Positions 2,993 to 28,072 of a DNA stretch of 28,254 bases are shown piece by piece. Source of the DNA: Candidatus Cloacimonadota bacterium. Its GTDB lineage: Bacteria > Cloacimonadota > Cloacimonadia > JGIOTU-2. Within the stretch, counting starts at the first letter, position 1, and the number at the start of each line of letters is the position of its first letter. The notes beneath the pieces were generated by a model. That model saw only the letters and a program-made list of their open reading frames with translations. It ran no database searches and was not told where the DNA came from. The stretch covers positions 1-28,254 of the forward strand of contig JACNFI010000095.1 in assembly GCA_014384665.1 (NCBI GenBank), read 5' to 3'. The position numbers and the translations under genes were made by a program.

Positions 2993-3021
2993 AATATTTT
3001 TTTAATTCTCTTCTGTGGGAA

Positions 3022-3252
3022 GGGCGTGAACGCCCTGATATCTTCTTCTGTTTTTCTTTTCCCAGCCATGAATGGCTGGGTTATTGACTATAAGGGCGTA
3101 AACGCCCCTTGTACATATTTTTTCCTTTTTCTCTCATAAAAAGGCATTCCGTAGCCCAGTCGTTTTTAACCCGTGAAATTCTATAAGGAATATTTCACTG
3201 GGTTATACGACTGGGATTATGATAGAATATGAAGGATACGCCGTTTACGGCG
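3022..3252. repeat. cluster of five GC-rich palindromic hairpins in the plsY-purF intergenic region
   Basis: Seen directly in the sequence: GGGCGTGAACGCCC (3022-3035), CCCAGCCATGAATGGCTGGG (3061-3080), GGGCGTAAACGCCCC (3094-3108), CCCAGTCG…CGACTGGG (3155-3216) enclosing an inner ACCCGTGAAAT…ATTTCACTGGGTT hairpin, and CGCCGTTTACGGCG (3239-3252). All are GC-rich islands in AT-rich spacer. Confidence 0.7.
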
Positions 3253-3912
3253 TTACCATAGCTTTTTCTCTTTGCCATTCATTAACCTTTTTATATTCTC
3301 TTTATGACGAAAAATAATTAAAATCATAATAAAAGCTGTCAATATTAAAAAAGGAAGCTCGTCAAAATTTGGTATGTTTTTTATTAATTCTGTGCCGAAA
3401 AATGTTATTACTGCAATCATAGATGCAAGAGATACATATCTAAAAATAATTAGTATTATTACAAAAGGAATTAAAGCATAAATAACAGGAACAGGAATTA
3501 TGTTTATAAAAGCACCGGCTCCAGTCGCAACACCTTTACCACCTTTGAACTTTAAAAAAATAGGAAATATATGACCTAACACTACAGAAATTCCAACTAT
3601 AATAATCAAAATTTGAAAAGTTTGAGTTCCTTTAATATTATTAAAGACATTTAAAATTGAAATATTGAATATATTCGTTGGACTTTCAAGAATACAGCGT
3701 CCAATTTGAACTGCAAAAAATCCTTTTAAAAAATCAAAAATAAGAGAGATGATACCCGGAATTACACCAATTACTCTAAATACATTGGTTGCACCAATAT
3801 TTTTACTTCCATAATTCCTGATATCAATTTTTTTAAGTATTTTCCCAAGAATAAAACCACTCGGTATAGCACCAAGTAGATAAGCAATTATGATTGCAAT
3901 AATAAATTTCAA
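3253..3912 (-). CDS. plsY: glycerol-3-phosphate acyltransferase PlsY (acyl-phosphate dependent)
   Basis: The 219-aa polytopic membrane protein has the GSKNIGATNVFR motif characteristic of PlsY/YgiH. It overlaps der by 4 nt, a conserved der-plsY linkage. Confidence 0.85.
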   Translation of the reverse strand: MKFIIAIIIAYLLGAIPSGFILGKILKKIDIRNYGSKNIGATNVFRVIGVIPGIISLIFDFLKGFFAVQIGRCILESPTNIFNISILNVFNNIKGTQTFQILIIIVGISVVLGHIFPIFLKFKGGKGVATGAGAFINIIPVPVIYALIPFVIILIIFRYVSLASMIAVITFFGTELIKNIPNFDELPFLILTAFIMILIIFRHKENIKRLMNGKEKKLW

Positions 3913-7876: not shown

Positions 7877-8039
7877 TGTCTGTCCATAAAGTTGGTATTA
7901 TAAAACCTTACGGATGGTTAAGCTTCCGTCTGGGCGCCGAGACCGATGCGAAACCTCCGTAATGGTTGTATGTCTTTGACCATTGCGAAGGTCTTCGACC
8001 ATTCGCAAGGTTTTCAGAGTTTACAGATAGGCACTAATT
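7874..8039. repeat. about 166-bp palindrome-rich intergenic element (E1) bounded by 8-bp inverted repeats AATTAGTG/CACTAATT
   Basis: The element has terminal AATTAGTG (7874-7881) and CACTAATT (8032-8039). Internal inverted repeats are CCTTACGGA/TCCGTAATGG and ACCATTGCGAAGG/ACCATTCGCAAGG. It shares a 21-nt GC-rich core, CCGTCTGGGCGCCGAGACCGA, identical with element E2 at 8338-8358. Confidence 0.55.
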
Positions 8040-8280: not shown

Positions 8281-8314
8281 ATAAAGTATATGATTTGATT
8301 AAAATTATTTATAG

Positions 8315-8515
8315 ATGAGTTCACTATAAAAACCCGTCCGTCTGGGCGCCGAGACCGACGAAACACACGAAATACTCGAAAATGGTTTGTGTAAATTCAG
8401 CCCGTCTGCCCGTCTCCCGATATATCGGGAGACGAGACAGAGGCGCCGAGCCTGATAATATACGCATGTATTTTTCGCGTATTTCGTGGGAGATACCTTT
8501 TTATAGTGAACTCAT
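8315..8515. mobile_element. MITE-like 201-bp nested palindromic element (E2) with perfect 18-bp terminal inverted repeats
   Basis: The TIRs are ATGAGTTCACTATAAAAA (8315-8332) and TTTTTATAGTGAACTCAT (8498-8515). Internal features are the inverted repeats CACGAAATAC/GTATTTCGTG, a central perfect hairpin CGTCTCCCGATATATCGGGAGACG, and duplicated GGCGCCGAG cores. It is GC-rich relative to its surroundings and shares a 21-nt core with E1. Confidence 0.6.
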
Positions 8516-8550
8516 AGATATTTAATTTATTCTATTTTGGAAGGAGAATA

Positions 8551-11800: not shown

Positions 11801-12752
11801 TGATATAAGTAGTCAGTATACAGAAGTTTTTGCTGTTACCTATGATACCGATTATGAAGGAACTTATTATGTGGATATCGAACCTTATGAACGCCATTAT
11901 ATAATAAAAGGAAAGCCAATATTCAAAGGTCCAGTTTCATGTTATCAAGATTCATTTTCTCTAAATTTCATAGTTCCAGATGATATTCGTGGAGGACAGG
12001 AAGGACATATTCTTGCATATAGTGTAAACATAAATAAAACTCAAGATATTGTAATGAATTATCAAAAAAGGACAGAACCAGATAATCACAATTTGATTAT
12101 TAATGGTTATTCTGATGCTGTAAATGATGGACCTCCCACAATAGATATTTGGCTTGATAGAAAATCTTTTAACGATGGAGATTATGTTTCTACGACACCT
12201 AAACTTTTTGCAGATATTTCAGATAGCAATGGAATAAATATTACAAATACTCCTGGACATAGAATTTTGCTGACAATAGATGATGAATATGAAGAAAATG
12301 TTACTGATAAGTTTATATATAATCTCAATTCTTATACTGATGGTGCTATTGAATACAAAATTAGCAGTATAGAACCCGGTGACCATACATTGAGATTAGT
12401 TGTGTTTGATAATTTTAATCTACCTAGTTTTAAGGATGTAACTTTTAAAATAAAGGAGCCAGGCTGTATAAGTGCTTATAATGTGCTTAATTATCCAAAC
12501 CCAATGGATGTTCATACATATTTCACTTTTTATTTAGATGGAGATGCAACAGTTGATATAGAAATTTTTACAATTGCAGGAAAAATGATAAAGAGAATTG
12601 ATAATGAACTCTGCCAGCCAGGATATAATCAGATTTATTGGAATGGACGAGATGCGGATGATGATTTTCCTGCAAATGGTGTGTATTTTTATAAAATTTG
12701 CCTGAATTCAAAAAGAACTGATAAAGTTTATAAATTGATTGTTTCACATTAA
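8853..12752 (+). CDS. secreted gingipain-like cysteine peptidase (family C25) with a type IX secretion system C-terminal sorting domain
   Basis: The 1299-aa translation has an N-terminal signal peptide (KKQLLILFLFFNF), with a TTG start implied at 8853. The C25 catalytic His context is YYIGHGGYD and the Cys context is FFVAASCNVGHFD. The C-terminal about 80 aa (NYPNPMDVHTYFTFYLDGDATVDIEIFTIAGKMIKRIDN…YFYKI…YKLIV) fits the T9SS/Por secretion CTD beta-sandwich. Confidence 0.85.
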   Translation: MKKQLLILFLFFNFTFLFENLIGNSLNVIESNTNFLILKFKLEDYDIRYTENFSFINAKNLTYKEIEGDARLPVYIFTVGIPPEGQINYTKFETNVTSTTLKYPVAPYPKFIKTQESETCQLVYQINPDTYYNTLSPELIEISEPYYWRNQRVVKFIINPFSVENNQLIITGQFKLKINFPGNGSNKNVFKDKNFENIFKNSITNFNIAKYWSIERKREVPDNPFSHADRWFKIPITQDGIYKITKSELANAGIFVDDLAPESIKIFNGGGYSLNRNSYTGPTDLREIPVFLSQFGDDFSIYFYARDTNGSKMNPYYSSQYYNPYTGENIYWLTYNTDFTNKTEKKLILNSKPTIPKEELLQSYHFTVHFEEENLREDSNGIKWFWKNMSSGSLYNFSFTVSNLVENENQKIELKFNTGLYSGTTIKVNNETPDITWGNPVYLEGNFLKNGNNSIIISPSKSLYFDYYKVEYDKNLSMENNRVAFSLPQTNTEYEIEIDNVQNNELYIFKIKDFDDVDTISSENYNYNPESNTLTFINSITNLNTKYYAVCYGGYLTPTEIIEVILHEREVYYSYNQNGQVVGEDKDCYLRDNIELANTDVIIITPEVLYEKSKELADLHSEIDSMTVLVAKLSYIYDEFSWGLPDVVAIRYFLHYALDYYSSGSENIVSYAILAGDGTNDFRKYESITDDKNKLPPFINGTTASDDYYVYFNSGSCPDMMIGRFPCQNLSQFEISTNKVIEYVKYPIYGFWRDRIILSADDALKDGDYKEPVHTEYAEEYCADVIQNNVELIKIYGVEYPLDEFQNKPEVREDIIASINNGVAVFYYIGHGGYDVLGDEDYFRGSRDISRLNNADFLTFFVAASCNVGHFDSNTFECMAEKMVVTKDKGAIASLAASRGVGYSDKCSKVVDSLVTQADNNIRIGESILMAKCKGLNKKYILFGDPVIQLVIPPISGFLKIPDALPDDSLQARQTGYLKGTISDISSQYTEVFAVTYDTDYEGTYYVDIEPYERHYIIKGKPIFKGPVSCYQDSFSLNFIVPDDIRGGQEGHILAYSVNINKTQDIVMNYQKRTEPDNHNLIINGYSDAVNDGPPTIDIWLDRKSFNDGDYVSTTPKLFADISDSNGINITNTPGHRILLTIDDEYEENVTDKFIYNLNSYTDGAIEYKISSIEPGDHTLRLVVFDNFNLPSFKDVTFKIKEPGCISAYNVLNYPNPMDVHTYFTFYLDGDATVDIEIFTIAGKMIKRIDNELCQPGYNQIYWNGRDADDDFPANGVYFYKICLNSKRTDKVYKLIVSH

Positions 12753-12768
12753 AGTTTTGAAAAAGCTT

Positions 12769-12786
12769 AACGGGGTAAACCCCGTT
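12769..12786. terminator. perfect palindrome AACGGGGTAAACCCCGTT, 17 nt after the peptidase stop; candidate terminator or hairpin-family member
   Basis: It is a 7-bp GC-rich stem with a 4-nt loop. The U-run is on the upstream (antisense) side only, so it is not a canonical intrinsic terminator on the plus strand. It belongs to the CCCCGT hairpin family seen elsewhere in the window. Confidence 0.4.
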
Positions 12787-12865
12787 AAATAATTCACATT
12801 GTCCATTCTCCGTAGCACTGCGAAGGATGAATTATATAATTATTATCCTCTTCGGTTTGTTATAT

Positions 12866-13035
12866 TTAACGGGGTAAACCGCAAAATAATAATTGATTTA
12901 ACCGCGAATATACGCGAATTTACCCCGTTAGATATTCAGTTTTTTATTTCTATCTCCACCCGGATAATAAAATTATCTAACAGGGTAGACACTAATTTTT
13001 TTCTCTTAATTAGCGAAAATTAGCGTTAATTAGTG
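12866..13035. repeat. intergenic repeat block: CCCCGT-family hairpins plus a tandem 10-mer (TTAATTAGCG/AAAATTAGCG/TTAATTAGTG)
   Basis: AACGGGGTAAACCGC (about 12868) pairs with GCGAATTTACCCCGTT (about 12915-12931). TTTACCCCGTTAGAT…ATCTAACAGGGTA (12922-12988) forms a hairpin followed by CACTAATTTTTTT. A tandem 10-bp ×3 lies at 13006-13035. The AATTAGTG/CACTAATT motif is shared with the E1 boundaries. Confidence 0.55.
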
Positions 13036-13070
13036 GTTGGCAGTAAATAGTTATAATTTTTTGCCAAAGA

Positions 13071-14711: not shown

Positions 14712-14788
14712 AACAAAGAAAACACAACAAAGAAGAGATAAGCCATTAACTTACCCTAAACATCTCGAATAGAAATATTAAAATGAAA

Positions 14789-14819
14789 AGTTAGTGAGTG
14801 TTCGTGTAAGTTCGTGGCG
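14789..14819 (+). promoter_or_regulatory. conserved leader motif AGTTAGTGaGTGTTCGTGtAAGTTcGTGGCG, 22 nt upstream of the SPFH gene start
   Basis: It is near-identical to 27367-27452, which lies upstream of the 27473 membrane-protein gene. That copy carries an extra 55-bp CCCCGTG hairpin inserted between the two halves. In both cases AGGAGG and the ATG follow directly. Confidence 0.45.
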
Positions 14820-14840: not shown

Positions 14841-15740
14841 ATGGGTATAATAGTCATCATTATAATTCTGATTGTGCTATATTGGCAGGCAAAGAGTATT
14901 TTCCATGATAAAGCTAACCTGGCAAAAACTATTATTATTTTGCTAATTATAATTGGAGTTTTATCACAAACGATTAAAGTTGTAGAACCAGGTAAAGTAA
15001 AAGTGCAGGTGCTGTTCGGAAAGGTGCAAAAAAGGATTTTGCACAGCGGACTTAATTTTGTAAATCCGTTAATAACTATGCGTACTATGAGTGTTCGCAC
15101 AGAAGCTTATACAATGAGTGCTGCACGATATGAAGGTAGAGTCCGAGGCGACGATGCAATAAAAGCATTAACTTCTGATGGTATCATACTGCCTATGGAT
15201 ATTACATGCTTGTTTCATTTAATAGCTGATAAAGCACCAGAGGTATATGAAAAAATTGGCTATGATTATGAATCAAAGATTATCCGACCTGAACTCAAAA
15301 CGATTATCCGACAAGTTATTAGTAACTTTAAAATGGAGCAGGTATATTCTTCTGCAAGAGATACTATTGCTCTAAGAATGAAAGAAGAAGCTCATAAGAA
15401 ATTATTTCCAAGAGGAATATTTATTGAGGATGTTCTTTTAAGAAATGTTACTCTTCCAAAACAGGTAGAAACAGCAATAAATGCAAAAAAGACTGAGCAA
15501 CAAAATTTTGAAAAGATGCTCTATACGCTACAGAAAGAAGGAAAGGAAAAAGAGAGAAAGATTATCGAAGCAGAGGGTATCAAAATTGCCAATCAAACTA
15601 TTGCAGAAGGTCTAACAGAAAGTTATCTTAGATGGTATCAAATTGATATGATGAAAAAATTGATTGATAGCCCGAATAACACGATTATCTTTATTCCAAT
15701 GGGACAGGAGATTACACCGATAATTAATACAGGGAAATAA
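14841..15740 (+). CDS. SPFH/band-7 (stomatin/prohibitin-like) membrane protein
   Basis: The 299-aa translation has an N-terminal TM segment. The SPFH core (KVVEPGKVKVQVLFGKVQ…, IRPELKTIIRQVISNFKMEQVYSSARDTIALRMKEEAHKKL) and a C-terminal coiled-coil are typical of the family. An RBS (AGGAGGAAAAA) precedes the ATG. Confidence 0.8.
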   Translation: MGIIVIIIILIVLYWQAKSIFHDKANLAKTIIILLIIIGVLSQTIKVVEPGKVKVQVLFGKVQKRILHSGLNFVNPLITMRTMSVRTEAYTMSAARYEGRVRGDDAIKALTSDGIILPMDITCLFHLIADKAPEVYEKIGYDYESKIIRPELKTIIRQVISNFKMEQVYSSARDTIALRMKEEAHKKLFPRGIFIEDVLLRNVTLPKQVETAINAKKTEQQNFEKMLYTLQKEGKEKERKIIEAEGIKIANQTIAEGLTESYLRWYQIDMMKKLIDSPNNTIIFIPMGQEITPIINTGK

Positions 15741-15850
15741 GGAAATAGAGGTATAAGGGAAAAATCAAAAGGCAAAATGTAAAAGGCAAAATTAAAAGTT
15801 ATAGGGCAGAAATTTTTAATATATTGAAATTTTATTCTTTCCCTGTAAAT
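15632..15850 (+). repeat. direct repeat copy A: last 35 codons of the SPFH gene plus about 110 bp downstream; partner at 16637-16857
   Basis: 15632-15850 and 16637-16857 align end to end at roughly 85% identity. Copy B still encodes WYQIDMMKKLIDSPNNTIIFIPRGQDITPIINTGK*, against native …FIPMGQEITPIINTGK*. Confidence 0.8.
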
Positions 15851-15903
15851 TTATTGCATAGGAATTTCCTTTTTTTCTGACACATAAGTTTTTGGTAGAT
15901 AAC

Positions 15904-15927
15904 TCGTAACCCGTAACCCGTAACTCG
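15904..15927. repeat. tandem heptamer CGTAACC ×3 (TCGTAACCCGTAACCCGTAACTCG)
   Basis: Seen directly in the sequence, in the region carried in with the bioY insert. Confidence 0.6.
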
Positions 15928-15954
15928 AATAGCATTTTTTATCAGTGAATATCT

Positions 15955-16010
15955 GTGTTTACCCCGTGTAATATAAAACGCTTCACTATTACACGGGGTG
16001 AATCTGTGGC
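15955..16010 (+). promoter_or_regulatory. GC-rich hairpin GTGTTTACCCCGTGTAATAT-N13-TATTACACGGGGTGAATCTGTGGC, about 30 nt upstream of bioY; possible operator or hairpin-repeat family member
   Basis: It is a 12-bp perfect stem. The flanking ACGGGGTGAAnnnGTGGC motif recurs at 27249-27266 (reverse orientation) and 27436-27452. Confidence 0.4.
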
Positions 16011-16039: not shown

Positions 16040-16636
16040 ATGGAAAATCTAAAAAGAATGAACACAATGGCTGAAGCTTGTTTTCCAAGAATTGGAATTT
16101 TGAGCAATCCGATAATTTATAACTTGCTATTGATTTTAGGTGGCAGTCTCTTTATCTCCTTGACCGCACAATTAGCATTTCGTTTGCCTTTTACTCCAGT
16201 GCCAATAACAATGCAGACATTTGGAGTGCTTTTAATTGGACTTACATATGGTAGCAAGAGAGGTGCTTTAACATTGGTTGCATACCTTGCAGAAGGAGCA
16301 ATGGGCTTACCAGTATTTGCGAATGGTGGGTGTGGAATTGCTTACCTTTGCGGTCCCACAGGTGGATATTTGTTTGGATTTGTAGTTGCAGCATTTGTTA
16401 TTGGATACTTGGCAGAAAATGGCTGGGATAGAAAAATGTTGACTGCATTTGCAGCAATGTTGATTGGCACAATTGTTCTATTTGCTTTTGGTTTGCTCGG
16501 GCTGAGCAGATTTGTTGGTGAAGATAAATTATTTGTCGCAGGATTGATTCCGTTCATTCCAGGTGAGATTTTTAAGAGCATTCTTGTGGCTATTTCATTG
16601 CCAACTGCATGGAAGGTTCTCATAAAAAAATTTTAA
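16040..16636 (+). CDS. bioY: biotin transporter BioY (ECF-type S component)
   Basis: The 198-aa polytopic protein has the BioY hallmark PVPITMQTFGVLLIGL and GPTGGYLFGF motifs. A strong RBS (AAAGGAAAAA) precedes the ATG. It is visibly more GC-rich than its neighbours and is flanked by the 15632/16637 direct repeats. Confidence 0.85.
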   Translation: MENLKRMNTMAEACFPRIGILSNPIIYNLLLILGGSLFISLTAQLAFRLPFTPVPITMQTFGVLLIGLTYGSKRGALTLVAYLAEGAMGLPVFANGGCGIAYLCGPTGGYLFGFVVAAFVIGYLAENGWDRKMLTAFAAMLIGTIVLFAFGLLGLSRFVGEDKLFVAGLIPFIPGEIFKSILVAISLPTAWKVLIKKF

Positions 16637-16857
16637 ATGGTACCAAATTGATATGATGAAAAAACTGATTGATAGTCCGAATAATACGATTATCTTTATC
16701 CCGAGGGGACAAGATATTACACCAATAATTAATACTGGAAAGTAGTATATAAAAGGAAATAAGGAGATAGGGATATAAGGATATAAGGCAAAATGTAAAA
16801 GGCAAAAAATTAAGAAGCAGAAATTATTAATATAGAGAAGATTTATTCTTTTACCCT
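16637..16857 (+). repeat. direct repeat copy B (diverged duplicate of the SPFH 3' end plus downstream spacer)
   Basis: See copy A. It includes the in-frame remnant of the 35 C-terminal SPFH codons with its own stop at about 16747-16749. Confidence 0.8.
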
Positions 16858-16880: not shown

Positions 16881-18068
16881 ATGATAAATATGAAAAAGAA
16901 AAAAATTATATTCATTATTGTATTATTCTCTATGTTTTCTACATGCACTTTTTCTTATGCTTTATATGAATTTACTTGTATTTTTACTTTATACAACACT
17001 TCTGCAACCAATTTAGCTTTTGGACTTGATTCTGGTACAGCAAATATCTGGCACAAAAATCCCTTAGATATTTGGAGTAATCCAGCAAAACTTGGGTATT
17101 ATAAAGGATTTGCTTTTGGATACTCACATGATAAATGGTTTGATGATCTTAATTTGGACATTTATCACAACTCATCCTATTTAACATTTGGATGGAAGGG
17201 TTTAGGCATTTTACTGCCTTCTCTCAATAATTCAAGCAAATTTGGAACCACTATGGATTATGGTGAACAAGAAGTATATGATGCACATGGAAATCTTTTG
17301 AGGAAGTTTAATTCCTATGAGACCTGCAGTCAATTTGCTTTTGGAATTAATTGTCTTGAATTCATTAATTATTTTTCTAAAGAAAATCAATTATTCAATA
17401 ATCTGCGAAAATACTCGGAACTTTCATTAGGATTAAGTATTGATTATATACGAAGTAATCTGCTGCCTTATATTTCTGATTCCCTGAAAATAAATAAAGG
17501 AACTGGGTTATCAAATAATATTGGCGCACTAATAAAAATAACTCCTTTAAATATATATGATAGTGGTATAAGGCTTGATATTACTGCAGGCATAAATATA
17601 GTTAACATATTTAAATCAGACATGACTTATAAATACAATAATGGAGATAAGGAGAAACAACCATTGCCTTATGGTAATAGAACTGGAATCGCTGGAAAAT
17701 TATCATTTATAAATATTAAGAACCTCGCAGATGAATATCCTTTGCTTTTTGATATTTCTAAATATCTTTTATCAATCTATGCAAGTTATGATAATTCTAA
17801 ATATGGTGATAATCCTTCTATCTGGGGTAAAGGAATTGAATTAACTTTGCTTGATATATTTTCTTGGCGATTTGGAGAATGCACAGATAAATATGGACAG
17901 GAGATTGGAGATTGTGAAGGTTGGGGTATTAATCTCAATTACAAAAATATTGTTAGTTTTCAATATAATTATGTTGAGTTTCCTTTAGGAGAGTCGCAAA
18001 CTAAGCAAAAAAAAGAAGATATATCATTTGGTATAGATATAATTAAACTCATAAATGAGTTTAAATAA
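16881..18068 (+). CDS. hypothetical secreted / outer-membrane-like protein
   Basis: The 395-aa translation has an N-terminal signal-like segment (KKKKIIFIIVLFSMFSTCTFSYA). Alternating aromatic/glycine-rich beta-strand-like segments run through the protein. Its family is unknown. The true start may be the second ATG at 16890, which has better spacing to GAGGT. Confidence 0.6.
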   Translation: MINMKKKKIIFIIVLFSMFSTCTFSYALYEFTCIFTLYNTSATNLAFGLDSGTANIWHKNPLDIWSNPAKLGYYKGFAFGYSHDKWFDDLNLDIYHNSSYLTFGWKGLGILLPSLNNSSKFGTTMDYGEQEVYDAHGNLLRKFNSYETCSQFAFGINCLEFINYFSKENQLFNNLRKYSELSLGLSIDYIRSNLLPYISDSLKINKGTGLSNNIGALIKITPLNIYDSGIRLDITAGINIVNIFKSDMTYKYNNGDKEKQPLPYGNRTGIAGKLSFINIKNLADEYPLLFDISKYLLSIYASYDNSKYGDNPSIWGKGIELTLLDIFSWRFGECTDKYGQEIGDCEGWGINLNYKNIVSFQYNYVEFPLGESQTKQKKEDISFGIDIIKLINEFK

Positions 18069-18073
18069 AATCT
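18006..18073 (+). repeat. direct repeat copy A: last about 20 codons of gene 16881-18068 plus 5 nt downstream; partner at 18511-18577
   Basis: CAAAAAAAAGAAGATATATCATTTGGTATAGATATAATTAAACTCATAAATGAGTTTAAATAAAATCT matches CAAAAAAAGAATGATCTATCATTTATTATAGACATATTTAAATTCATAAATGAGTTAAAATAAAATCT. Copy B still reads …DLSFIIDIFKFINELK*, against native …DISFGIDIIKLINEFK*. Confidence 0.75.
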
Positions 18074-18456: not shown

Positions 18457-18510
18457 AATAATTGAAGAGTACGCAAATATTATTCACAGATATTCTGTAA
18501 AAAACAAAAA

Positions 18511-18577
18511 CAAAAAAAGAATGATCTATCATTTATTATAGACATATTTAAATTCATAAATGAGTTAAAATAAAATC
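18511..18577 (+). repeat. direct repeat copy B (diverged duplicate of the 3' end of gene 16881-18068)
   Basis: See copy A at 18006-18073; identity is roughly 80%. Confidence 0.75.
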
Positions 18578-18617
18578 TCTGCGTTCTCTGCGTCTTCGCG
18601 GTGAGTGAAAGGAACAA

Positions 18618-21093: not shown

Positions 21094-21600
21094 ATGCAGA
21101 AAAATATGAAACTAAACGGCAAAATATGGTTGATTACTAACAATAATAATCTCATAAACGATATTGACACAGATATGATTTTCCACAATAGATATTTAGC
21201 AATCACAGATATAAATCAGATGGGACAATATGCATTTGATAATCTTAATGGATGGAAAGATTTTGCAAAGGAAAGTGAGAAAGGTGATATCATCATTGCT
21301 GGGAAAAATTTTGGTTCTGGTTCATCCAGACAGCAAGCAGTTGATTGCTTTATCTCGCTTGGAATTCAAGCAATTTTGGCTGAATCTTTTGGTGCTATCT
21401 ACAAACGAAATGCAATAAATTCAGGATTACCAATCTTACAAATTAAAAAAATAAATTTACAAAAATTTAATCAACGAGAAAAAATTGTAATTAATTTAGT
21501 TGATGGCTCAACTAATTCGGAATATTTAGAAATAGAGCCTTTTTCAAAGGTTCAGCTGGATATTTATCAATCAGGAAATTTATTCTCCTATGGAAAGTAA
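21094..21600 (+). CDS. leuD: 3-isopropylmalate dehydratase small subunit (aconitase swivel domain, LeuD-like)
   Basis: The 168-aa translation has the GKNFGSGSSRQQA…AESFGAIYKRNAIN motifs typical of LeuD. An alternative start at 21106 (MKLNGKIW…) is possible. Confidence 0.85.
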   Translation: MQKNMKLNGKIWLITNNNNLINDIDTDMIFHNRYLAITDINQMGQYAFDNLNGWKDFAKESEKGDIIIAGKNFGSGSSRQQAVDCFISLGIQAILAESFGAIYKRNAINSGLPILQIKKINLQKFNQREKIVINLVDGSTNSEYLEIEPFSKVQLDIYQSGNLFSYGK

Positions 21601-21659
21601 CGCAATTGTCTCAATTGCGACACAAACCCCCGATTTCTCGGGGGGGACGATTGTGTTAC
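21596..21659 (+). repeat. composite hairpin H1 directly after the leuD stop: GTAAC-[CGCAATTG tct CAATTGCG]-[ACACAA a CCCCCGA tttc TCGGGGG ggacga TTGTGT]-TAC
   Basis: Seen directly in the sequence. The same structure recurs at 21992-22040, but there it lacks the inner CCCCCGA…TCGGGGG mini-hairpin. It could act as a terminator or recombination site, or it may be a nested hairpin insertion. Confidence 0.65.
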
Positions 21660-21662
21660 AAA

Positions 21663-21716
21663 ATTCTATTTGATATTCATCAAGCAGGAAATTTGTTCAC
21701 TTATGGATGAAAGAAT
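21663..21716 (+). repeat. degenerate duplicate of the leuD 3' tail (encodes FDIHQAGNLFTYG*, against native LDIYQSGNLFSYGK*)
   Basis: It aligns to 21556-21600 at roughly 75% identity. A second, more degenerate copy lies at 22041-22078. Confidence 0.65.
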
Positions 21717-21738: not shown

Positions 21739-21969
21739 ATGTTAAATACAGTTAGAGGTATATATGAAAATGGGGTAATAAAACCTTTTGAAAAAGTAAG
21801 AGATAAAGAAAGGTCAGAGGGCATAATTATCTTTTTAGATACTGCCAAAGAGAAGAAATCAGCTTTCTTTTCCTCGGCCGGCTCATGGAAAGATGTAGAT
21901 ACCGAGGTCTTGAAAAAACAAATATACGAAAGCAGAAAAATTTCTAATAGAAGAAAAATTCAGCTATGA
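21739..21969 (+). CDS. DUF104 (AF2212-like) family putative antitoxin, orphan
   Basis: The 76-aa translation starts MLNTVRGIYENGVIKPFEKV…EGIIIF, matching the conserved N-terminus of the DUF104 antitoxin-like family that is usually paired with PIN/VapC toxins. The RBS is AAAGGAGG. No adjacent PIN-domain ORF is present. Confidence 0.5.
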   Translation: MLNTVRGIYENGVIKPFEKVRDKERSEGIIIFLDTAKEKKSAFFSSAGSWKDVDTEVLKKQIYESRKISNRRKIQL

Positions 21970-21978
21970 TTTCATTCC

Positions 21979-22078
21979 TTCTCCTATGGAAAGTAACGCA
22001 ATTGTCTCAATTGCGACACAATCGGAGACGATTGTGTTACAAAATCCAGATGATTTATCAGGCAGGAAATTTGTTTAA
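21979..22078 (+). repeat. second copy of the cassette-boundary module: leuD tail fragment (TTCTCCTATGGAAAGTAA), hairpin H3 (21992-22040), then a degenerate tail
   Basis: TTCTCCTATGGAAAGTAACGCAATTGTCTCAATTGCGACACAA is identical to 21580-21622. H3 is the simple form …ACACAATCG gaga CGATTGTGT TAC. The following 22041-22078 parallels 21660-21716. An ATG of a cargo gene follows each module. Confidence 0.7.
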
Positions 22079-22080
22079 AT

Positions 22081-22418
22081 TTGGGAAAATATAGTATGAT
22101 TAGTAAAGAGCAGATTCATGAAATTGTACAAACTATTGTAAAAGGCTACAATCCAAAGAAAATAATCCTTTTTGGTTCGTATGTTAGTGGAAATCCTTCT
22201 GAAGATAGTGACTTAGACATGTTTCTTGTGAAAGAGAGCAAACTTCCAAGATATAAACGAGCAAGGCAGGTTCATAAATTATTTGACCCCTTGTGCGATG
22301 GATATAATCGTGTACAACACAAATGAAATAAAAAAATGGAAAGATGTCAGAAATTCTTTTGTATACGATGTTCTAAAAAATGGGAAAGTGTTATATGAAC
22401 AAACTGGTTGAAGAGTGG
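22081..22418 (+). pseudogene. mntA: MNT-type (minimal) nucleotidyltransferase antitoxin gene, interrupted by a +1 frameshift
   Basis: The N-terminal 81 aa contain the nucleotidyltransferase motif ILFGSYVSGNPSEDSDLDMFLV (GS…DxD). The frame then ends at 22326. Reading +1 from the CCCC run at about 22288 gives …PCAMDIIVYNTNEIKKWKDVRNSFVYDVLKNGKVLYEQTG*, the canonical MNT C-terminus. The shift sits in a C4 homopolymer, so this is a genuine frameshift or a sequencing error. Confidence 0.65.
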
Positions 22419-22776
22419 ATTCATAAAGCAGAAAATGATTTTTTAGATGCAGAAAATAATTTGAAAAGTCAGCAGATACCTACTGATACAGTCTGTTTTC
22501 ACTGCCAACAAGTAGCAGAAAAATATCTGAAAGCTTACTTGATTTCAAGAAACAAATCCTTTCCCCAAATTCATAATCTCATTCATCTGATGTAATTATG
22601 TAGAGAACTGGACCCAATTTTTTTGAAGTTAAAAGATGAACTAATAATTCTAAATGACTATGCAGTAGAAATTCGCTATCCTGACGACTGGTTGTGAACC
22701 AACCATTGAAGAAGCCAATGAAGCATTGGAATTAGCAAGAAAAGTAAAAGATTTTATATCTATAAAAATAAAATAG
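22380..22776 (+). pseudogene. hepT: HEPN-domain toxin gene (HepT-like), interrupted by two frame changes
   Basis: The first 71 aa (…AENDFLDAENNLKS…CFHCQQVAEKYLKAYLISRN…IHNLIHLM*) form the HEPN N-terminal helices. Downstream in other frames the reading continues ELCRELDPIFLKLKDELIILNDYAVEIRYPDDW (the Rx4-6H-like RYPDD HEPN motif), then EPTIEEANEALELARKVKDFISIKIK*. The start overlaps the end of the MNT gene, as in mntA-hepT pairs. Confidence 0.6.
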
Positions 22777-25605: not shown

Positions 25606-25638
25606 AAATGTCATCCTCGCGAATGCGGGGAAAGGAGC

Positions 25639-26302: not shown

Positions 26303-27247
26303 ATGAAATTTTCTGAAAGTATTCAAAAACTTGATAGAAGATATATTTATATAGTTGTTGCACTTGCTGTCATTATTCCATTGATATTTCCACTTGGTTT
26401 AAAAACATATCTTACTACTCCTGTGGAAGACCTTTATAAACATATTGATGAAATTGCAGGTCGTGATGATATGGCAATTTTAATTGATTTTGCCCAAAGT
26501 CCATCTACTATGCCAGAATTGTATCCAATGGATATAGCAATCTTAAGGCATTGTTTTCAAAGAAGAATAAAGGTCTTTACCATAGCATATTTTCCTCAAG
26601 GAGCTGCAATTGTGGAAATGGCATTGGCTGAAGTTAAAGAGGATTTTCCTGAGATAAAACAAGATGTAGATTATTGCAACTTCGGATATAAATCTGGTTA
26701 TATGTTTTTGCCAATTGTTCTTGGAATGGGTGATGATATTGCAAAAGCTGTGGAAACAAACAGTGAAGGAAATATGCTTGAAAATCTTCCTATAATGGAA
26801 AAAATTAAGAATTATGATAACATTCAGGTAATTATTGAAATAACTGGTTCGACACCTGGTATTTCGTATATTACTTACGCAAGAGGAAGATTTGGAGTAG
26901 ATGTAGCTGTAGGTGTTACAGCCGTTTCTGCTGCAGATGTATATCCTTATTTGCAGACAGGACAATTGATAGGAAGTCTTGGTGGGTTAAAAGGCGCCGC
27001 AGAATACGAAGAATTGGTGCAAACCTTTGCTATGCAAAATCTTGACTATAGTAAAAAAAACGCAAGTGATGTTGATTGGAGAGAGAAACAATATTCACTA
27101 TCAAGTGTTCCATATAAATATAAGAAAGCAAGAGTTGGTATGGATACTCAAGCAGTAGTTCATGTATTAATAATTCTGTTTATTGTAATTGGAAATATTG
27201 GATATTTTATTGAAAAAAGAACTGAAAAACATAAGTATGTTAAATAA
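26303..27247 (+). CDS. bitopic membrane protein with a large extracytoplasmic domain between N- and C-terminal TM helices, unknown family
   Basis: The 314-aa translation has an RBS (TAAGGAGAAGAAA). The N-terminal TM is YIYIVVALAVIIPLIFPL and the C-terminal TM is AVVHVLIILFIVIGNIGYF. No catalytic motif is recognised. Confidence 0.65.
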   Translation: MKFSESIQKLDRRYIYIVVALAVIIPLIFPLGLKTYLTTPVEDLYKHIDEIAGRDDMAILIDFAQSPSTMPELYPMDIAILRHCFQRRIKVFTIAYFPQGAAIVEMALAEVKEDFPEIKQDVDYCNFGYKSGYMFLPIVLGMGDDIAKAVETNSEGNMLENLPIMEKIKNYDNIQVIIEITGSTPGISYITYARGRFGVDVAVGVTAVSAADVYPYLQTGQLIGSLGGLKGAAEYEELVQTFAMQNLDYSKKNASDVDWREKQYSLSSVPYKYKKARVGMDTQAVVHVLIILFIVIGNIGYFIEKRTEKHKYVK

Positions 27248-27248
27248 A

Positions 27249-27459
27249 GCCACGAATTCACCCCGTTAGATGCTATTACCCAGTTAGATGATTGCTATTT
27301 AATGGAATGTTATCTAACGGGGCAAGCACTAACTATCACGAACAAAAATTTTATTATATAATAAAGAGTTAGTGCTTGTTCGTGTTTACCCCGTGAAATA
27401 ATGCTTTGCATTAAAATCTCTGATTTTATTTCACGGGGTGAAGTTGGTGGCGGATAATT
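27249..27459. repeat. composite palindromic element bounded by inverted 18-mers GCCACGAATTCACCCCGT / ACGGGGTGAAGTTGGTGGC
   Basis: It contains the hairpin CCCCGTTAGAT…ATCTAACGGGG (27262-27323). It has interleaved inverted repeats AGCACTAACT/AGTTAGTGCT and CACGAACA/TGTTCGTG, with pseudoknot-like topology. It also has the hairpin TTTACCCCGTGAAATAA…TTATTTCACGGGGTG (27385-27440). The 3' half equals the 14789 leader motif plus an inserted hairpin. Confidence 0.6.
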
Positions 27460-27472
27460 TATTGGAGGATAA

Positions 27473-28072
27473 ATGACTGAAATTATTGGAATCTGGATAG
27501 CGGCATTTCTTACTTTATGTATGTTTTCGTTTTTATACAAAGAAAACCCTTTTTATAGATTTGCGGAGCACCTTTTTGTTGGATGTTCTATGGGATATTT
27601 TATTCCTTATACTTATTATAATGTTTTTATTCCTTATACTTATAATCCTTTATTCCTAAGAAAGGAGTATATTCTTATTATACCATTTATTATTGGTCTT
27701 TTGTACTGGTTAAGATTTTCTGGTAAGTATAGCTGGCTTAGTAGATATCCTATTGCATTCGGTTTAGGTATTGTTGGAATGGGTGTTCCAATGTCTATGC
27801 ATGCAAGTGTGCTTGTGCAGATGAGAAGTATGATGTTGCCTTTAGATAATATAAATATCATCCTAATTTTTATTGGAACTATTACCATACTTCTTTATTT
27901 CTTTTTCTCAAAAGCTCATACAGGTATTTATGGGAGATTTACTTCTATTGGAATATGGTTTATGATGGTAGGATTCGGTGCTTCTTTTGGATATACTGTA
28001 ATGGCTCGTATTTCTCTGCTCATTGGAAGAGTACAGTTTCTTCTTGAGGAGTGGTTGCATATTATTAAATAG
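27473..28072 (+). CDS. polytopic membrane protein (about 5-6 TM), unknown family
   Basis: The 199-aa hydrophobic ORF has an RBS (TGGAGGATAAATG). It carries an aromatic-rich loop FIPYTYYNVFIPYTYNP. It is the last gene of a same-strand run of four membrane proteins. Confidence 0.6.
   Translation: MTEIIGIWIAAFLTLCMFSFLYKENPFYRFAEHLFVGCSMGYFIPYTYYNVFIPYTYNPLFLRKEYILIIPFIIGLLYWLRFSGKYSWLSRYPIAFGLGIVGMGVPMSMHASVLVQMRSMMLPLDNINIILIFIGTITILLYFFFSKAHTGIYGRFTSIGIWFMMVGFGASFGYTVMARISLLIGRVQFLLEEWLHIIK

Follow-up and report, generated by a model that had tools for sequence, protein, structure and literature searches.

Hairpins dispersed through the intergenic DNA of a 28,254-nt stretch of a Candidatus Cloacimonadota genome (the window) form one family with five scored members, and copies of this family occur in many other genomes and inside genes. 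Two of the window members sit in the arms of a longer inverted repeat, and the orthologous sites of relatives are empty for the resulting composite element (foldback plus hairpins). The reading that we consider probable is that of a mobile hairpin family resembling REP and RPE elements (layer 2) nested in a foldback repeat of about 78 bp (layer 1), both being non-autonomous.

A foldback repeat with and without hairpins

The earlier note had described a leader at 14789-14819 with a second copy at 27367-27452, where a hairpin separates its two halves. The two regions do share this context, and the hairpin lies exactly at the junction named there. However, the ‘leader’ proved to be the right arm of a foldback repeat of about 78 bp that is absent from the orthologous sites of relatives, and the homology of its two copies extends beyond the stretch originally given. 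Each arm is a series of three 7-nt words (GTTNGTG) spaced 10 nt apart; the outer ends read GCCA...TGGC, and the arms form terminal inverted repeats (GCCAnnAACTTACnCnAAC compared with the reverse complement of the right arm). Copy A (14742-14818, no strand assigned), defined by alignment to the second copy and by DNA folding, is hairpin-free. Its left arm is GCCATTAAC-TTA-CCCTAAAC-ATCTCGAA (14742-14769), its centre is AT-rich, and its right arm is GTTAGTG-AGT-GTTCGTG-TAA-GTTCGTGGC (14790-14818). Copy B/D (27249-27451, no strand assigned), defined by alignment and by the relatives' loci, contains one hairpin per arm; the two are at mirror positions, each placed in the 3-nt spacer that separates the outermost word from the second. 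In this genome the foldback repeat is located between the stop codon of one gene and the ribosome-binding site of the next, and copy B/D sits in about 216 extra bp (27248-27463) separating genes 26303-27247 and 27473-28072.

The sequence AGTTAGTGNNTGTTCGTGT is found only at 14789 and 27367 (0.00 expected, 100 shuffles), and a 19-mer pattern common to both copies occurs twice against an expectation of 0. With both hairpins removed from 27249-27452, 61/76 positions (80%) are identical to 14742-14819; the alignment score is 91, compared to 15.8 ± 7.2 in 2000 shuffles (z = 10.4), and the left halves alone give z = 4.2. Judged by this alignment, the contexts of copies A and B/D are homologous outside the hairpins, a point on which the earlier note had made its reading depend. 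In DNA folding, copy A has a z-score of –2.4 and copy B/D one of –8.0. In a check for target-site duplications, ATAA-like words were seen near both ends of both copies, with ambiguous boundaries. The window contains no autonomous insertion sequence sharing the foldback ends.

The right-arm hairpin of copy B/D (27385-27442, plus strand; covariance model R1, 49.5 bits, E = 1.4e-21) is placed between GTTCGTG and AAGTTGGTGGCG. It measures 58 nt with its whole foot, the core being 27385-27439 (TTTACCCCGTG...CACGGGGT), and has the foot TTTACCCCGT/ACGGGGTGAA (single-stranded form TTCACCCCGT...ACGGGGTGAA) on a 14-bp stem. Its interior is a three-way junction with the mini-hairpins TGC-TTT-GCA and AAAATC-TCT-GATTTT, and its DNA fold reaches –17 kcal/mol (z = –8.3). 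The left-arm hairpin (27257-27327, minus strand; R1 24.9 bits, E = 1.5e-08 over 27261-27322) reads CTTGCCCCGTTAGAT...ATCTAACGGGGTGAA, then TTCGTGGC, on the minus strand. The two arms therefore hold different hairpin subtypes, TGAAAT and TTAGAT, the latter in the left arm.

The R1 hairpin family in the window

Family members share the foot TT[C/T]ACCCCGT...ACGGGGT[G/A]AA, in which the outer TT[C/T]A and T[G/A]AA pair with each other, and the stem goes on as N-R-R-A-T. The interior is freely variable and often forms a three-way junction of two triloop mini-hairpins. Among 40 exact-foot matches, stem pairs 11-15 beyond the fixed foot are paired in 85-95% of cases, compared to 33-53% in slid controls, with UA<->GC and AU<->GC exchanges. 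The R1 model identifies five members in the 28-kb window, all of them intergenic (E from 1e-21 to 6e-3).

Apart from the two hairpins of copy B/D, the strongest is 15958-16002, which interrupts ATCAGTG-AAT-ATCTGTG ... ATCTGTGGC (element 15941-16010, plus strand; R1 42.7 bits, E = 5.9e-18). This element has the architecture of copy B/D with another 7-nt word and lies 30 nt upstream of the start of a BioY gene. A hairpin of the TTAGAT subtype with a decayed right arm (ACAGGGTAGA) occupies 12919-12989 (plus strand; R1 20.7 bits, E = 2.5e-06) and is flanked by two CGCGAAT words (12903-12918). The fifth member is a degenerate copy, AACCCGTGAAAT...ATTTCACTGGGTT (3166-3206, within 3155-3215, plus strand; R1 14.4 bits, E = 0.006), nested within the outer stem CCCAGTCGT/ACGACTGGG. 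An arm-loop-arm-arm structure of the TTAAAT subtype (12767-12876, no strand assigned; fold computed) was identified by eye only, because its loop of about 70 nt places it outside R1 scoring; it combines a mini-hairpin TTAACGGGG-TAAA-CCCCGTTAA (12767-12788) with a large-loop copy ACCCCGTTAAATAAT...ATATTTAACGGGGT (12779-12876). The position next to the terminal word, filled in copy B/D, is also occupied by a hairpin at 15958-16002 and in the relative L134, with other 7-nt words.

Word arrays and other palindromes

Arrays of 7-nt words also occur uninterrupted. One, ATTAGCG-AAA-ATTAGCG-TTA-ATTAGTGGTTGGC (13009-13041, plus strand), lies 30 nt upstream of a mutase gene start; another, two tandem copies of TCTCTGCGT followed by CTTCGCGGTG (18576-18593, plus strand), lies 25 nt upstream of the GTG start of gene 18618. 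Altogether, six word arrays are found 20-60 nt upstream of plus-strand gene starts. The window's words are GTTCGTG, ATCTGTG, ATTAGCG and TCTCTGCG, with spacers of 1-3 nt, and the window holds two triple arrays, against 0.01 in shuffles. The locus of the relative L132 has uninterrupted word arrays and no R1 match. Upstream of rpsT we observed a three-layer nested palindrome (8302-8528, no strand assigned; fold –53 kcal/mol, z = –9.4) built of outer 31-nt arms, word-array arms CACGAAATACTCGAAAAT / ATTTTTCGCGTATTTCGTGG and an inner GC hairpin CGTCTCCCGATATATCGGGAGACG (8411-8434).

All GC-rich palindromes listed in the earlier note are present in the window: GGGCGTGAACGCCC at 3022, GGGCGTAAACGCCC at 3094, CGCCGTTTACGGCG at 3239, AACGGGGTAAACCCCGTT at 12769, and CCCCGTTAGAT...ATCTAACGGGG at 27261-27322, with a one-mismatch version at 12923-12985. 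Treating them as one family, however, lumps several things together, since GGGCGT.AACGCCC, CGCCGTTTACGGCG and the palindrome H1 do not match the R1 model. A cluster of small GC-rich tetraloop hairpins at 3021-3253 (no strand assigned), likewise with no R1 match, contains AGGGCG-TGAA-CGCCCT (3021-3036), CCCAGCCA-TGAA-TGGCTGGG (3061-3080), GGGCG-TAAA-CGCCC (3094-3107) and ACGCCG-TTTA-CGGCGT (3238-3253). Nine short-loop GC-rich perfect hairpins occur in the window, compared to 1.4 ± 1.0 in shuffles; all nine are located in intergenic DNA, which makes up about 12% of it.

A second proposed case of hairpin insertion concerned H1 and its paralogue H3. Both sequences exist, H1 at 21620-21656 and H3 at 22016-22037 rather than at 22011-22032, as first given. 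H1 (plus strand; no R1 match, structure by folding) is ACACAA-ACCCCCGATTTCTCGGGGGG-GACGATTGTGT and contains the hairpin CCCCCGA-TTTC-TCGGGGG (21627-21644); H3 (plus strand), in the second copy of a direct repeat of about 110 bp, is the plain stem-loop ACACAATCG-GAGA-CGATTGTGT. The pair does not represent insertion of a hairpin of the same family: TCGGA in H3 corresponds to ACCCCCGATTTCTCGGGGGG in H1, a 5-for-20-nt replacement with no clean insertion, and the repeat holding both is a cassette-boundary duplication that arose by insertion of a cassette into the 3′ end of a leuD-like gene.

Orthologous sites in relatives and strains

Copy A is absent upstream of the orthologous Band_7 gene in two relatives, L151 (91% amino acid identity) and L133 (85%). 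At the site of copy B/D in five relatives (L152-L156), only about 8-13 bp separate the stop codon from the next ATG, and the window's approximately 216 bp are lacking. The site upstream of rpsT (8302-8528 in the window) measures 13 bp in L133. No R1 match was found in about 88 kb of the relatives' loci. The comparison of filled and empty orthologous sites proposed in the earlier note thus revealed empty sites for the foldback repeat and the composite element, but no such pair within this lineage for a hairpin alone.

Over about 7 kb, identity among four independent assemblies of this organism is 99.8-99.99%, and the copies that they carry are identical. We detected no polymorphism of the elements among these near-identical strains, and there is no sign of current activity. 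Presence and absence at paralogous sites, earlier taken as a signature of mobility, is by itself not one here: A against B/D is a comparison of paralogues, from which alone insertion and deletion are indistinguishable.

Occurrence in other genomes and inside genes

Exact-pattern matches to the family were found at at least 119 loci, with locus GC of 24-58%, in metagenome-assembled genomes (MAGs) labelled as more than a dozen bacterial phyla. All genome matches are MAGs and the phylum names are those of the MAG records, so some labels may be binning errors. The polA genes of four CPR-type (candidate phyla radiation) MAGs carry an in-frame hairpin at three positions, each corresponding to a gap in the other aligned sequences. 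These cases argue against mis-binned Cloacimonadota DNA as the source of the copies in other phyla. About 20 more long open frames carry a family hairpin, many reading (Y/H)PV...GV(K/N); a search with a 40-aa concatenated peptide for in-frame copies gave no match. The earlier idea of a mobile hairpin family nesting in another repeat gains support from the homologous contexts, the many genomes and polA; the many labelled phyla speak against a family specific to this lineage.

In one case the resemblance between distant copies is very close: the hairpin 27385-27442 shares 55/58 positions with a Bacteroidales copy (L112), in which the interior is inverted relative to the feet and whose contig is otherwise dissimilar. 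A further copy (L074) is identical at 51/58 positions.

Of the copies in other genomes that could be classified, about 74% are intergenic. Copies lie on both strands, between convergent genes and in frame within genes, and the genes downstream are unrelated. A bias against divergent spacers (12% of copies compared to 19% of intergenic bases) was not significant. In viral contigs the foot TTCA...TGAA was found at 10 loci, TTTA...TGAA at 8 and TTTA...TAAA at 3. A strand-marking T.G foot was therefore rejected; the perfect palindrome is as frequent as the T.G form, so no strand is marked by the foot. Plasmid and phage collections contained no family match.

Such flanking words are missing from about 80% of the family copies in other genomes. 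A general rule of target-site duplication for the hairpins, which the earlier note suggested looking for, was rejected: flanks matching at ≥6/7 positions were observed 21 times against 3.5 expected, but such direct repeats accompany only about 17% of copies and are mostly of the CTG[TC]G class.

All-against-all clustering of 1640 open reading frames (ORFs) from 119 loci revealed no gene family travelling with the hairpin. The recurrent families near the loci are only housekeeping ones (ABC ATPase, aminotransferase, histidine kinase, TPR, glycosyltransferase), and a search of the same ORFs for IS200-type TnpA with an approximate query sequence gave no match. Full-text literature searches with the foot and stem gave only chance primer matches, and keyword searches returned related concepts and not the R1 hairpin family.

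Insertion, deletion and other explanations

Considering the constant place of the hairpins next to ...GTGGC words, a hairpin could be an optional module of the foldback repeat and not an independent invader. Taken further, it would be an original foldback module that copy A has lost by replication-slippage deletion, with no nested insertion at all. Long perfect palindromes are prone to deletion, within the arm the hairpins are always found at one place, beside the terminal ...GTGGC word, and at the Cloacimonadota locus L082 a hairpin is joined to GTTAGTGGC with no upstream words, as if the two were one unit. Nevertheless, we consider this loss unlikely. The two arms of copy B/D have different hairpin subtypes, the L132 locus has uninterrupted word arrays, and most copies elsewhere stand free of words, some of them inside genes; together, these observations imply that the hairpin moved on its own at some point.

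The elements could alternatively be functional cis-acting RNAs, either 5′-UTR leaders or intercistronic hairpins that stabilise or process mRNA, with the R1 hairpin as an optional variable stem. Arrays and hairpins on the coding strand 20-60 nt upstream of six plus-strand starts would fit, as would the compensatory changes in the stems, and in other bacteria tandem heptamer repeats upstream of start codons were proposed as sites for post-transcriptional regulators (PMC4679880). We hold this to be quite improbable, as the elements are missing from the orthologous sites in relatives although the same genes are retained there, and as the family has no strand-marking foot and occurs on both strands, in spacers between convergent genes, in frame and in front of unrelated genes. 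Rfam 15 gave 0 matches in the window at the gathering threshold and, at E ≤ 10, only three unrelated chance matches, none at element sites; no tRNA or tmRNA genes were found in the window.

A local origin by replication template switching that extends quasi-palindromes, with convergent likenesses in other genomes, fits the H1/H3 pair: the new arm CCCCCGA is complementary to TCGGGGG, which reuses the TCGG of the old loop, and the change is the 5-for-20-nt replacement. For the R1 hairpins it is very hard to sustain, since neither 20 specified foot bases with a shared stem and interior over more than 100 loci nor 55/58 identity between otherwise unlike contigs would be explained. Ordinary intrinsic terminators are almost certainly not the answer: the stem-loops are GC-rich and intergenic and two small palindromes (21644-21627 and 12789-12766) resemble terminators when read on the minus strand, against the direction of every neighbouring gene, but, in line with the earlier note, no family hairpin is followed by a T-run (flanks GAAGTTGGTGGCGG, GAATCTGTGGCTAA, CAAGCACTAAC), the only terminator call touching one is a spurious partial stem (15992-16008), and hairpins also lie within genes.

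Several narrower identifications were tried and rejected. Integron attC sites were considered because of GTTAGAT and ATCTAAC, but these are in inverse order inside the CCCC/GGGG foot, the subtypes GTGAGAT and GTAGGAT misfit, and the window has no integrase. Further readings, of ...GTGGC with an AT-rich box as a sigma-54 or sigma-70 promoter and of GTTGGTGG as a Chi-like site, were abandoned because they did not fit or lacked a test. The window words differ from the TAACTGA heptamer, though their position close upstream of starts matches.

How the nested hairpins may have moved

Under the preferred reading of a mobile hairpin family nested in a foldback repeat, the hairpins would be selfish DNA of the REP/RPE kind. 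An enzyme encoded away from them may have moved them in trans, probably as hairpins of single-stranded DNA whose conserved foot is recognised, with insertion preferred beside ...G[TC]GG[CT]-type words. We put this route forward tentatively, and as conjecture, because target duplication is absent in about 80% of copies and no neighbouring protein or IS200-type transposase recurs. Once transcribed within operons, the elements would be expected to form strong RNA hairpins, with possible effects on mRNA.

A broader picture, possible but doubtful, is that of a hairpin family defined by a 10-nt foot, with any interior, that moves between phyla and multiplies within genomes through a universal host function or a widely transferred enzyme. 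It would prefer ...G[TC]GG words, and its insertion and excision would leave the word arrays behind as by-products (target duplications and 3-nt footprints). Such a family would be a pan-bacterial counterpart of RPE that can settle in essential genes, polA for example, while preserving their frame.

How palindromes of the REP and RPE kind spread without a transposase of their own is a long-standing question, which this family may make testable by comparative genomics. Its foot is sharply defined; sister species lack it at the syntenic loci examined, although it is present in many phyla; in-frame copies exist in conserved genes, and the hairpin-carrying repeat has both filled and empty orthologous sites. 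Together these features allow phylogenetic profiling for a mobilising enzyme and dating of insertions. In this genome the elements inflate intergenic DNA (about 216-320 bp compared to about 10-13 bp in relatives). They also produce spurious ORFs (e.g. 12799-13023) and, in MAG annotation, peptide insertions in proteins.

Comparison with known systems

REP/BIME/REPIN elements of the GTAG and CGTC superfamilies are short, imperfect palindromes rich in GC that occur in many copies, chiefly between genes, span several phyla, are often paired in inverted orientation into larger structures and in some copies lie in replication or repair genes; the CGTC REPs have no dedicated neighbouring transposase (Di Nocera et al. 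2013, PMC3733652). The R1 family is similar in being short, GC-rich, palindromic, repeated and mostly extragenic, in its several phyla and inverted pairing, in having some copies within replication or repair genes, and in that no dedicated transposase was seen beside its copies. It differs in that the flank position table reveals neither GTAG nor CGTC as an unpaired head, its stems measure 14-16 bp (6-13 bp in REPs), and the interior is branched and 8-70 nt long where REPs have a loop of 2-5 nt. What its members have in common is a 10-nt foot with the stem rather than a 4-nt tag, and at the 119 loci, given the approximate TnpA query, none of the copies was seen to adjoin a RAYT gene.

A REP-like palindrome of Caldithrix abyssi, aAACCGTTgaAACGGTTt, is a fixed 18-mer with no loop or interior, reported to be species-specific and not part of larger repeats (PMC5317091). 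Like R1, it is intergenic and over-represented, in a phylum of the same FCB group, and its core ACCGTT/AACGGT resembles ACCCCGTT/AACGGGGT of R1. Mobile GC clusters of yeast mitochondria are likewise small palindromic elements rich in GC, and they invade AT-rich DNA between genes and, now and then, coding sequence; they differ from R1 in being organellar, eukaryotic and unrelated in sequence.

The foldback repeat resembles MITEs and foldback elements in its shortness, its inverted-repeat arms and its presence or absence at orthologous sites, and the nesting of one repeat in another is as in cyanobacterial small dispersed repeats (SDR). In contrast to MITEs, it shows no clear target-site duplication, and the window has no parent insertion sequence whose ends match; in contrast to both classes, its arms consist of 7-nt words in tandem, with a different sequence from copy to copy. 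TAACTGA heptamer direct repeats occur in two to six copies close upstream of starts in Beggiatoaceae, Cyanobacteria and Bacteroidetes (MacGregor 2015, PMC4679880), and the word arrays are likewise intergenic heptamers near start codons with a patchy cross-phylum distribution. Their word is another one and varies by site, their spacers are 1-3 nt, they end in G[TC]GG[CT], and they form inverted arms associated with hairpins.

Rickettsia palindromic elements (RPE) enter protein-coding genes in either orientation, keep the reading frame and persist at these sites; they are about 100-150 bp long and not known outside Rickettsia and close relatives. The R1 family, probably unrelated to RPE in sequence, is shorter (28-60+ nt) and occurs in many phyla with hosts other than Rickettsiales, and it resembles RPE in its in-frame copies in polA and other long ORFs.

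Foldback copies with and without hairpins

The earlier note described two near-identical contexts in the window, one of them interrupted by a hairpin, and both halves of that description hold. The pattern AGTTAGTGNNTGTTCGTGT occurs in the window only at 14789 and 27367 (0 in 100 shuffles), and the second copy has the hairpin TTTACCCCGTG...CACGGGGTGAA (27385-27442) exactly between GTTCGTG and GTTGGTGGCG. At the first site (copy A), the words GTTAGTG, GTTCGTG and GTTCGTG begin at 14790, 14800 and 14810, spaced by exactly 10 nt, and the third continues into GGC. These words form a right arm, of which the left arm (14742-14769), GCCATTAAC-TTA-CCCTAAAC-ATCTCGAA, is an imperfect reverse complement; 14742-14818 thus forms a ~78-bp foldback with GCCA...TGGC at its outer ends.

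The second copy (27249-27451, copy B/D) carries GCCACGAAT...CACTAAC-TAT-CACGAAC on the left, then an AT-rich centre, and GTTAGTG-CTT-GTTCGTG...GTTGGTGGC on the right. With its two hairpins removed it is identical to copy A at 61/76 positions (score 91 versus 15.8 +/- 7.2 for shuffles), and the left halves, missed in the earlier note, are likewise significantly similar. The paralogous foldback copies are homologous and represent the same element. Both hairpins occupy the 3-nt spacer between the outermost and second words (TAA in the right arm, TTA in the left), at mirror positions. Their stem subtypes differ (TGAAAT versus TTAGAT), therefore neither is a copy of the other. For this pair, deletion of hairpins from copy A, not insertion into copy B/D, is a possible explanation.

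The same layout with other words is found with a hairpin at 15941-16010 (ATCAGTG-AAT-ATCTGTG-hairpin-ATCTGTGGC) and in the relative L134 (GTTTGTG-TAT-GTTCGTG-ATG-GTTCGTG-hairpin-ATTCGTGGC). Uninterrupted triple arrays number 2 in the window versus 0.01 expected; the relative L132 has one, with no hairpin match in its locus. A tandem TAACCCG x3.6 (15900-15924; GTTACGG on the other strand) is the left side of the 15941-16010 element, and a 19-nt unit, GTCTTCGACCATTCGCAAG, is repeated 2.3 times in the spacer before gene 8053 (7972-8015). Copy A also contains a sigma-70-like match, TAAACA-16 nt-TAAAAT (14757-14784), directed at gene 14841, and TATAAT stands at 27357-27362 in copy B/D. An outward promoter might be part of the foldback; overall, the promoter scan did no better than chance (104 versus 100 in shuffles).

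Occupied and empty sites in relatives

Orthologous sites differ in whether they carry the composite element. In five relatives (78-46% identity), the junction of the genes matching 26303-27247 and 27473-28072 reads ...TTAAATAA|GGAG..ATG, with ~8-13 bp from the stop codon to the next ATG; the window is ~216 bp longer there. Upstream of Band_7, the spacer of the relatives L151 (91% protein identity) and L133 (85%) is short, AT-rich and without foldback. L133 is compact elsewhere too: its spacer ahead of rpsT measures 13 bp (271 bp in the window) and that ahead of the mutase gene 11 bp (319 bp in the window). In near-identical strains (99.8-99.99%) the copies are identical, so there is no sign of current activity; the Band_7 protein of the window is identical in GCA_016783705.1 and three ENA assemblies.

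The window, from a Candidatus Cloacimonetes/Cloacimonadota MAG, has 31% GC, its main genes lie on the plus strand from ~5.4 kb on, and it contains no tRNA genes or Rfam families. A three-layer nested palindrome of 230 bp fills the spacer before rpsT (8302-8528; DNA fold -53 kcal/mol, z = -9.4). The 33-bp spacer before gene 25639 holds a small GC hairpin, CCTCGC-GAAT-GCGGGG (25614-25631), which is missing from the 14-bp spacer of L133 (14780-14805). Gene 27473-28072 holds an in-frame 27-nt tandem repeat x2.4 (27599-27657) encoding FIPYTY(Y)N.. twice.

The hairpins form one family in many genomes

Scanning one genome per species for the exact pattern TTTACCCCGT-N8-38-ACGGGGTGAA returned at least 119 loci, where we estimate ~34 by chance under uniform base composition. 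In 40 aligned matches, stem pairs 11-15, the five just past the fixed foot, are 85-95% paired with UA/GC and AU/GC exchanges, versus 33-53% when partner columns were slid. Chance matches would lack this continuing stem. The interior can be as small as an 8-nt loop or as complex as a three-way junction of two mini-hairpins, which have a C-G closing pair and GAA, AAA, TTT or TTC triloops. GCGAAGC-type motifs are classic, very stable DNA mini-hairpins.

From these matches we built a covariance model (R1), which recognised five hairpins in the window, at 27385-27442 (49.5 bits), 15958-16002 (42.7), 27261-27322 (24.9), 12922-12986 (20.7) and 3166-3206 (14.4); a large-loop copy at 12779-12876 was recognised by eye only. 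No R1 match was found in ~88 kb of relatives' loci. A 74-aa TTG-start ORF (12799-13023), wholly contained in hairpin repeats, is almost certainly spurious; repeats of this type lead to false gene calls in MAG annotation.

Among the matches listed, all host records are MAGs, labelled Bacteroidota, Planctomycetota, Omnitrophota, Nitrospirota, Patescibacteria/CPR, Desulfobacterota, Acidobacteriota, Gammaproteobacteria, Bdellovibrionota, Chloroflexota, Elusimicrobiota, Cloacimonadota and others (phyla are record labels, checked by genes only for the CPR polA cases). In this listed set, locus GC spans 24 to 58%, several MAGs contribute 4-8 loci each, and ~3/4 of copies are intergenic without strong gene orientation bias. 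The remaining ~1/4 of the listed copies lie inside long open frames, four of the in-frame ones in DNA polymerase I genes of CPR-type MAGs. There the hairpin translates in either orientation as (I/V/Y)(H/Y)PVKS...(F/L)(N/D)GVK and occupies three different positions, every insertion being a gap in the others; one older copy has apparently decayed in place. In the C-terminal region of the L020 polA (~1900-1970), a different extra segment, QPRVDELSSTRVEAGEL, stands where L087 has an R1 hairpin; at the peptide level it looks palindrome-encoded. This site, a loop preceding the ILQVHDE motif, may be a hot spot for insertions in polA of CPR bacteria.

A Bacteroidales MAG (L112) carries a copy that matches the window hairpin 27385-27442 at 55/58 positions, and a Prolixibacteraceae MAG (L074) carries one that matches it at 51/58; beyond the hairpin, these contigs have no similarity to the window's. 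The hairpin interior is inverted with respect to the feet, a DNA-level flip between arms; interiors in this family can flip. In five Bacteroidales and Saprospiraceae MAG loci (L033, L045, L067, L072, L111) the R1 hairpin lies within a longer conserved repeat, ...gatataaagcaaagattttt..attcctc-hairpin-ttttttttatatctgcaaaaatacaaa..., so other lineage-specific repeats, too, either host the family or include it as a component.

Candidate identities and flanks

A strand-marking foot was ruled out, perfect TTCA...TGAA being as common as the T.G form in viral contigs. U-tract terminators were ruled out by a terminator check of the window hairpins, and a known RNA family by the lack of any Rfam match at hairpin sites, also at E <= 10. 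The ORFs of the at least 119 loci yielded no gene family recurring beside hairpins and no match to an IS200-type transposase (approximate query sequence); plasmid and phage reference collections did not contain the family. Direct repeats flank 21 listed hairpins versus 3.5 expected, yet only ~17% of the copies, and are mostly ATCTGCG-hairpin-ATCTGCGTCC in Nitrospirota-type MAGs plus Cloacimonadota words. Pyrimidines predominate at positions +1 to +3 of the 3' flank.

Other palindromes in the window

Insertion had also been proposed for hairpin H1 (21620-21656) relative to its paralogue H3. Both exist, H3 five bases from its reported position, at 22016-22037, each in its own copy of a ~110-bp direct repeat comprising the last leuD-like codons and a double hairpin. 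In H1, ACCCCCGATTTCTCGGGGGG replaces TCGGA of H3, its new arm pairing with a segment that reuses the old TCGG, and R1 does not match H1. This looks more like a local palindrome extension than a newly arrived family member. In the compact relative L133, leuD ends with the window's third copy and is joined directly to a nucleotidyltransferase gene remnant; the window has thus gained ~490 bp at this point, AF2212-like antitoxin gene included. Of the nucleotidyltransferase/HEPN toxin-antitoxin pair, the window has only fragments (22081-22595; 81-aa and 71-aa ORFs) and L133 a fused remnant immediately after leuD (11890-11960).

Three gene-cassette insertions (BioY; a 100-aa ORF; the AF2212-like antitoxin) are flanked by direct repeats of 70-230 bp, 85-96% identical, which duplicate the 3' end of the upstream gene (15616-15840 and 16621-16851; 18003-18073 and 18508-18578; 21559-21707 and 21955-22095). 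BioY is missing from L133, as are the 395-aa and 100-aa ORFs. The cassettes look like Campbell-type integration of circular DNA with a homologous segment.

GC-rich perfect short-loop hairpins number 9 in the window versus 1.4 +/- 1.0 in shuffles, and 9/9 are intergenic, where intergenic DNA is 12% of the window. The remaining palindromes named earlier were all located. GGGCG-TGAA-CGCCC, GGGCG-TAAA-CGCCC, CGCCG-TTTA-CGGCG and CCAGCCA-TGAA-TGGCTGG give no match to R1. The tetraloops of these four are foot tetranucleotides of the hairpin family, and AACGGGG-TAAA-CCCCGTT is a right arm fused to a left arm, like tandem-array junctions in the loci L031 and L069. These small palindromes could be either array relics or separate families.

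Proposed mechanism and known systems

The hairpins, one family present in many genomes and with copies in frame in genes, would move on their own, favouring the spacer beside the terminal ...GTGGC word. Their conserved foot would be recognised by a putative enzyme encoded elsewhere. Single-stranded DNA would be its most plausible substrate, as it is for HUH Y1 transposases acting on REPs and IS200/IS605 ends.

No description of the consensus was found in the searchable literature, whose coverage is incomplete. Among the closest known things are REP/BIME elements, whose GTAG- and CGTC-tagged superfamilies span phyla, some lying in replication/repair genes (PMC3733652). Unlike these, the hairpins have no defining REP head and RAYT was not found at the loci examined; we therefore class them not as REP but as a new family within a known kind of element. 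MITE/foldback elements and the nested small dispersed repeats of cyanobacteria are similarly close, and in-frame insertion is shared with Rickettsia RPEs. The word arrays are reminiscent of the TAACTGA repeats, as yet unexplained, that precede start codons (PMC4679880).
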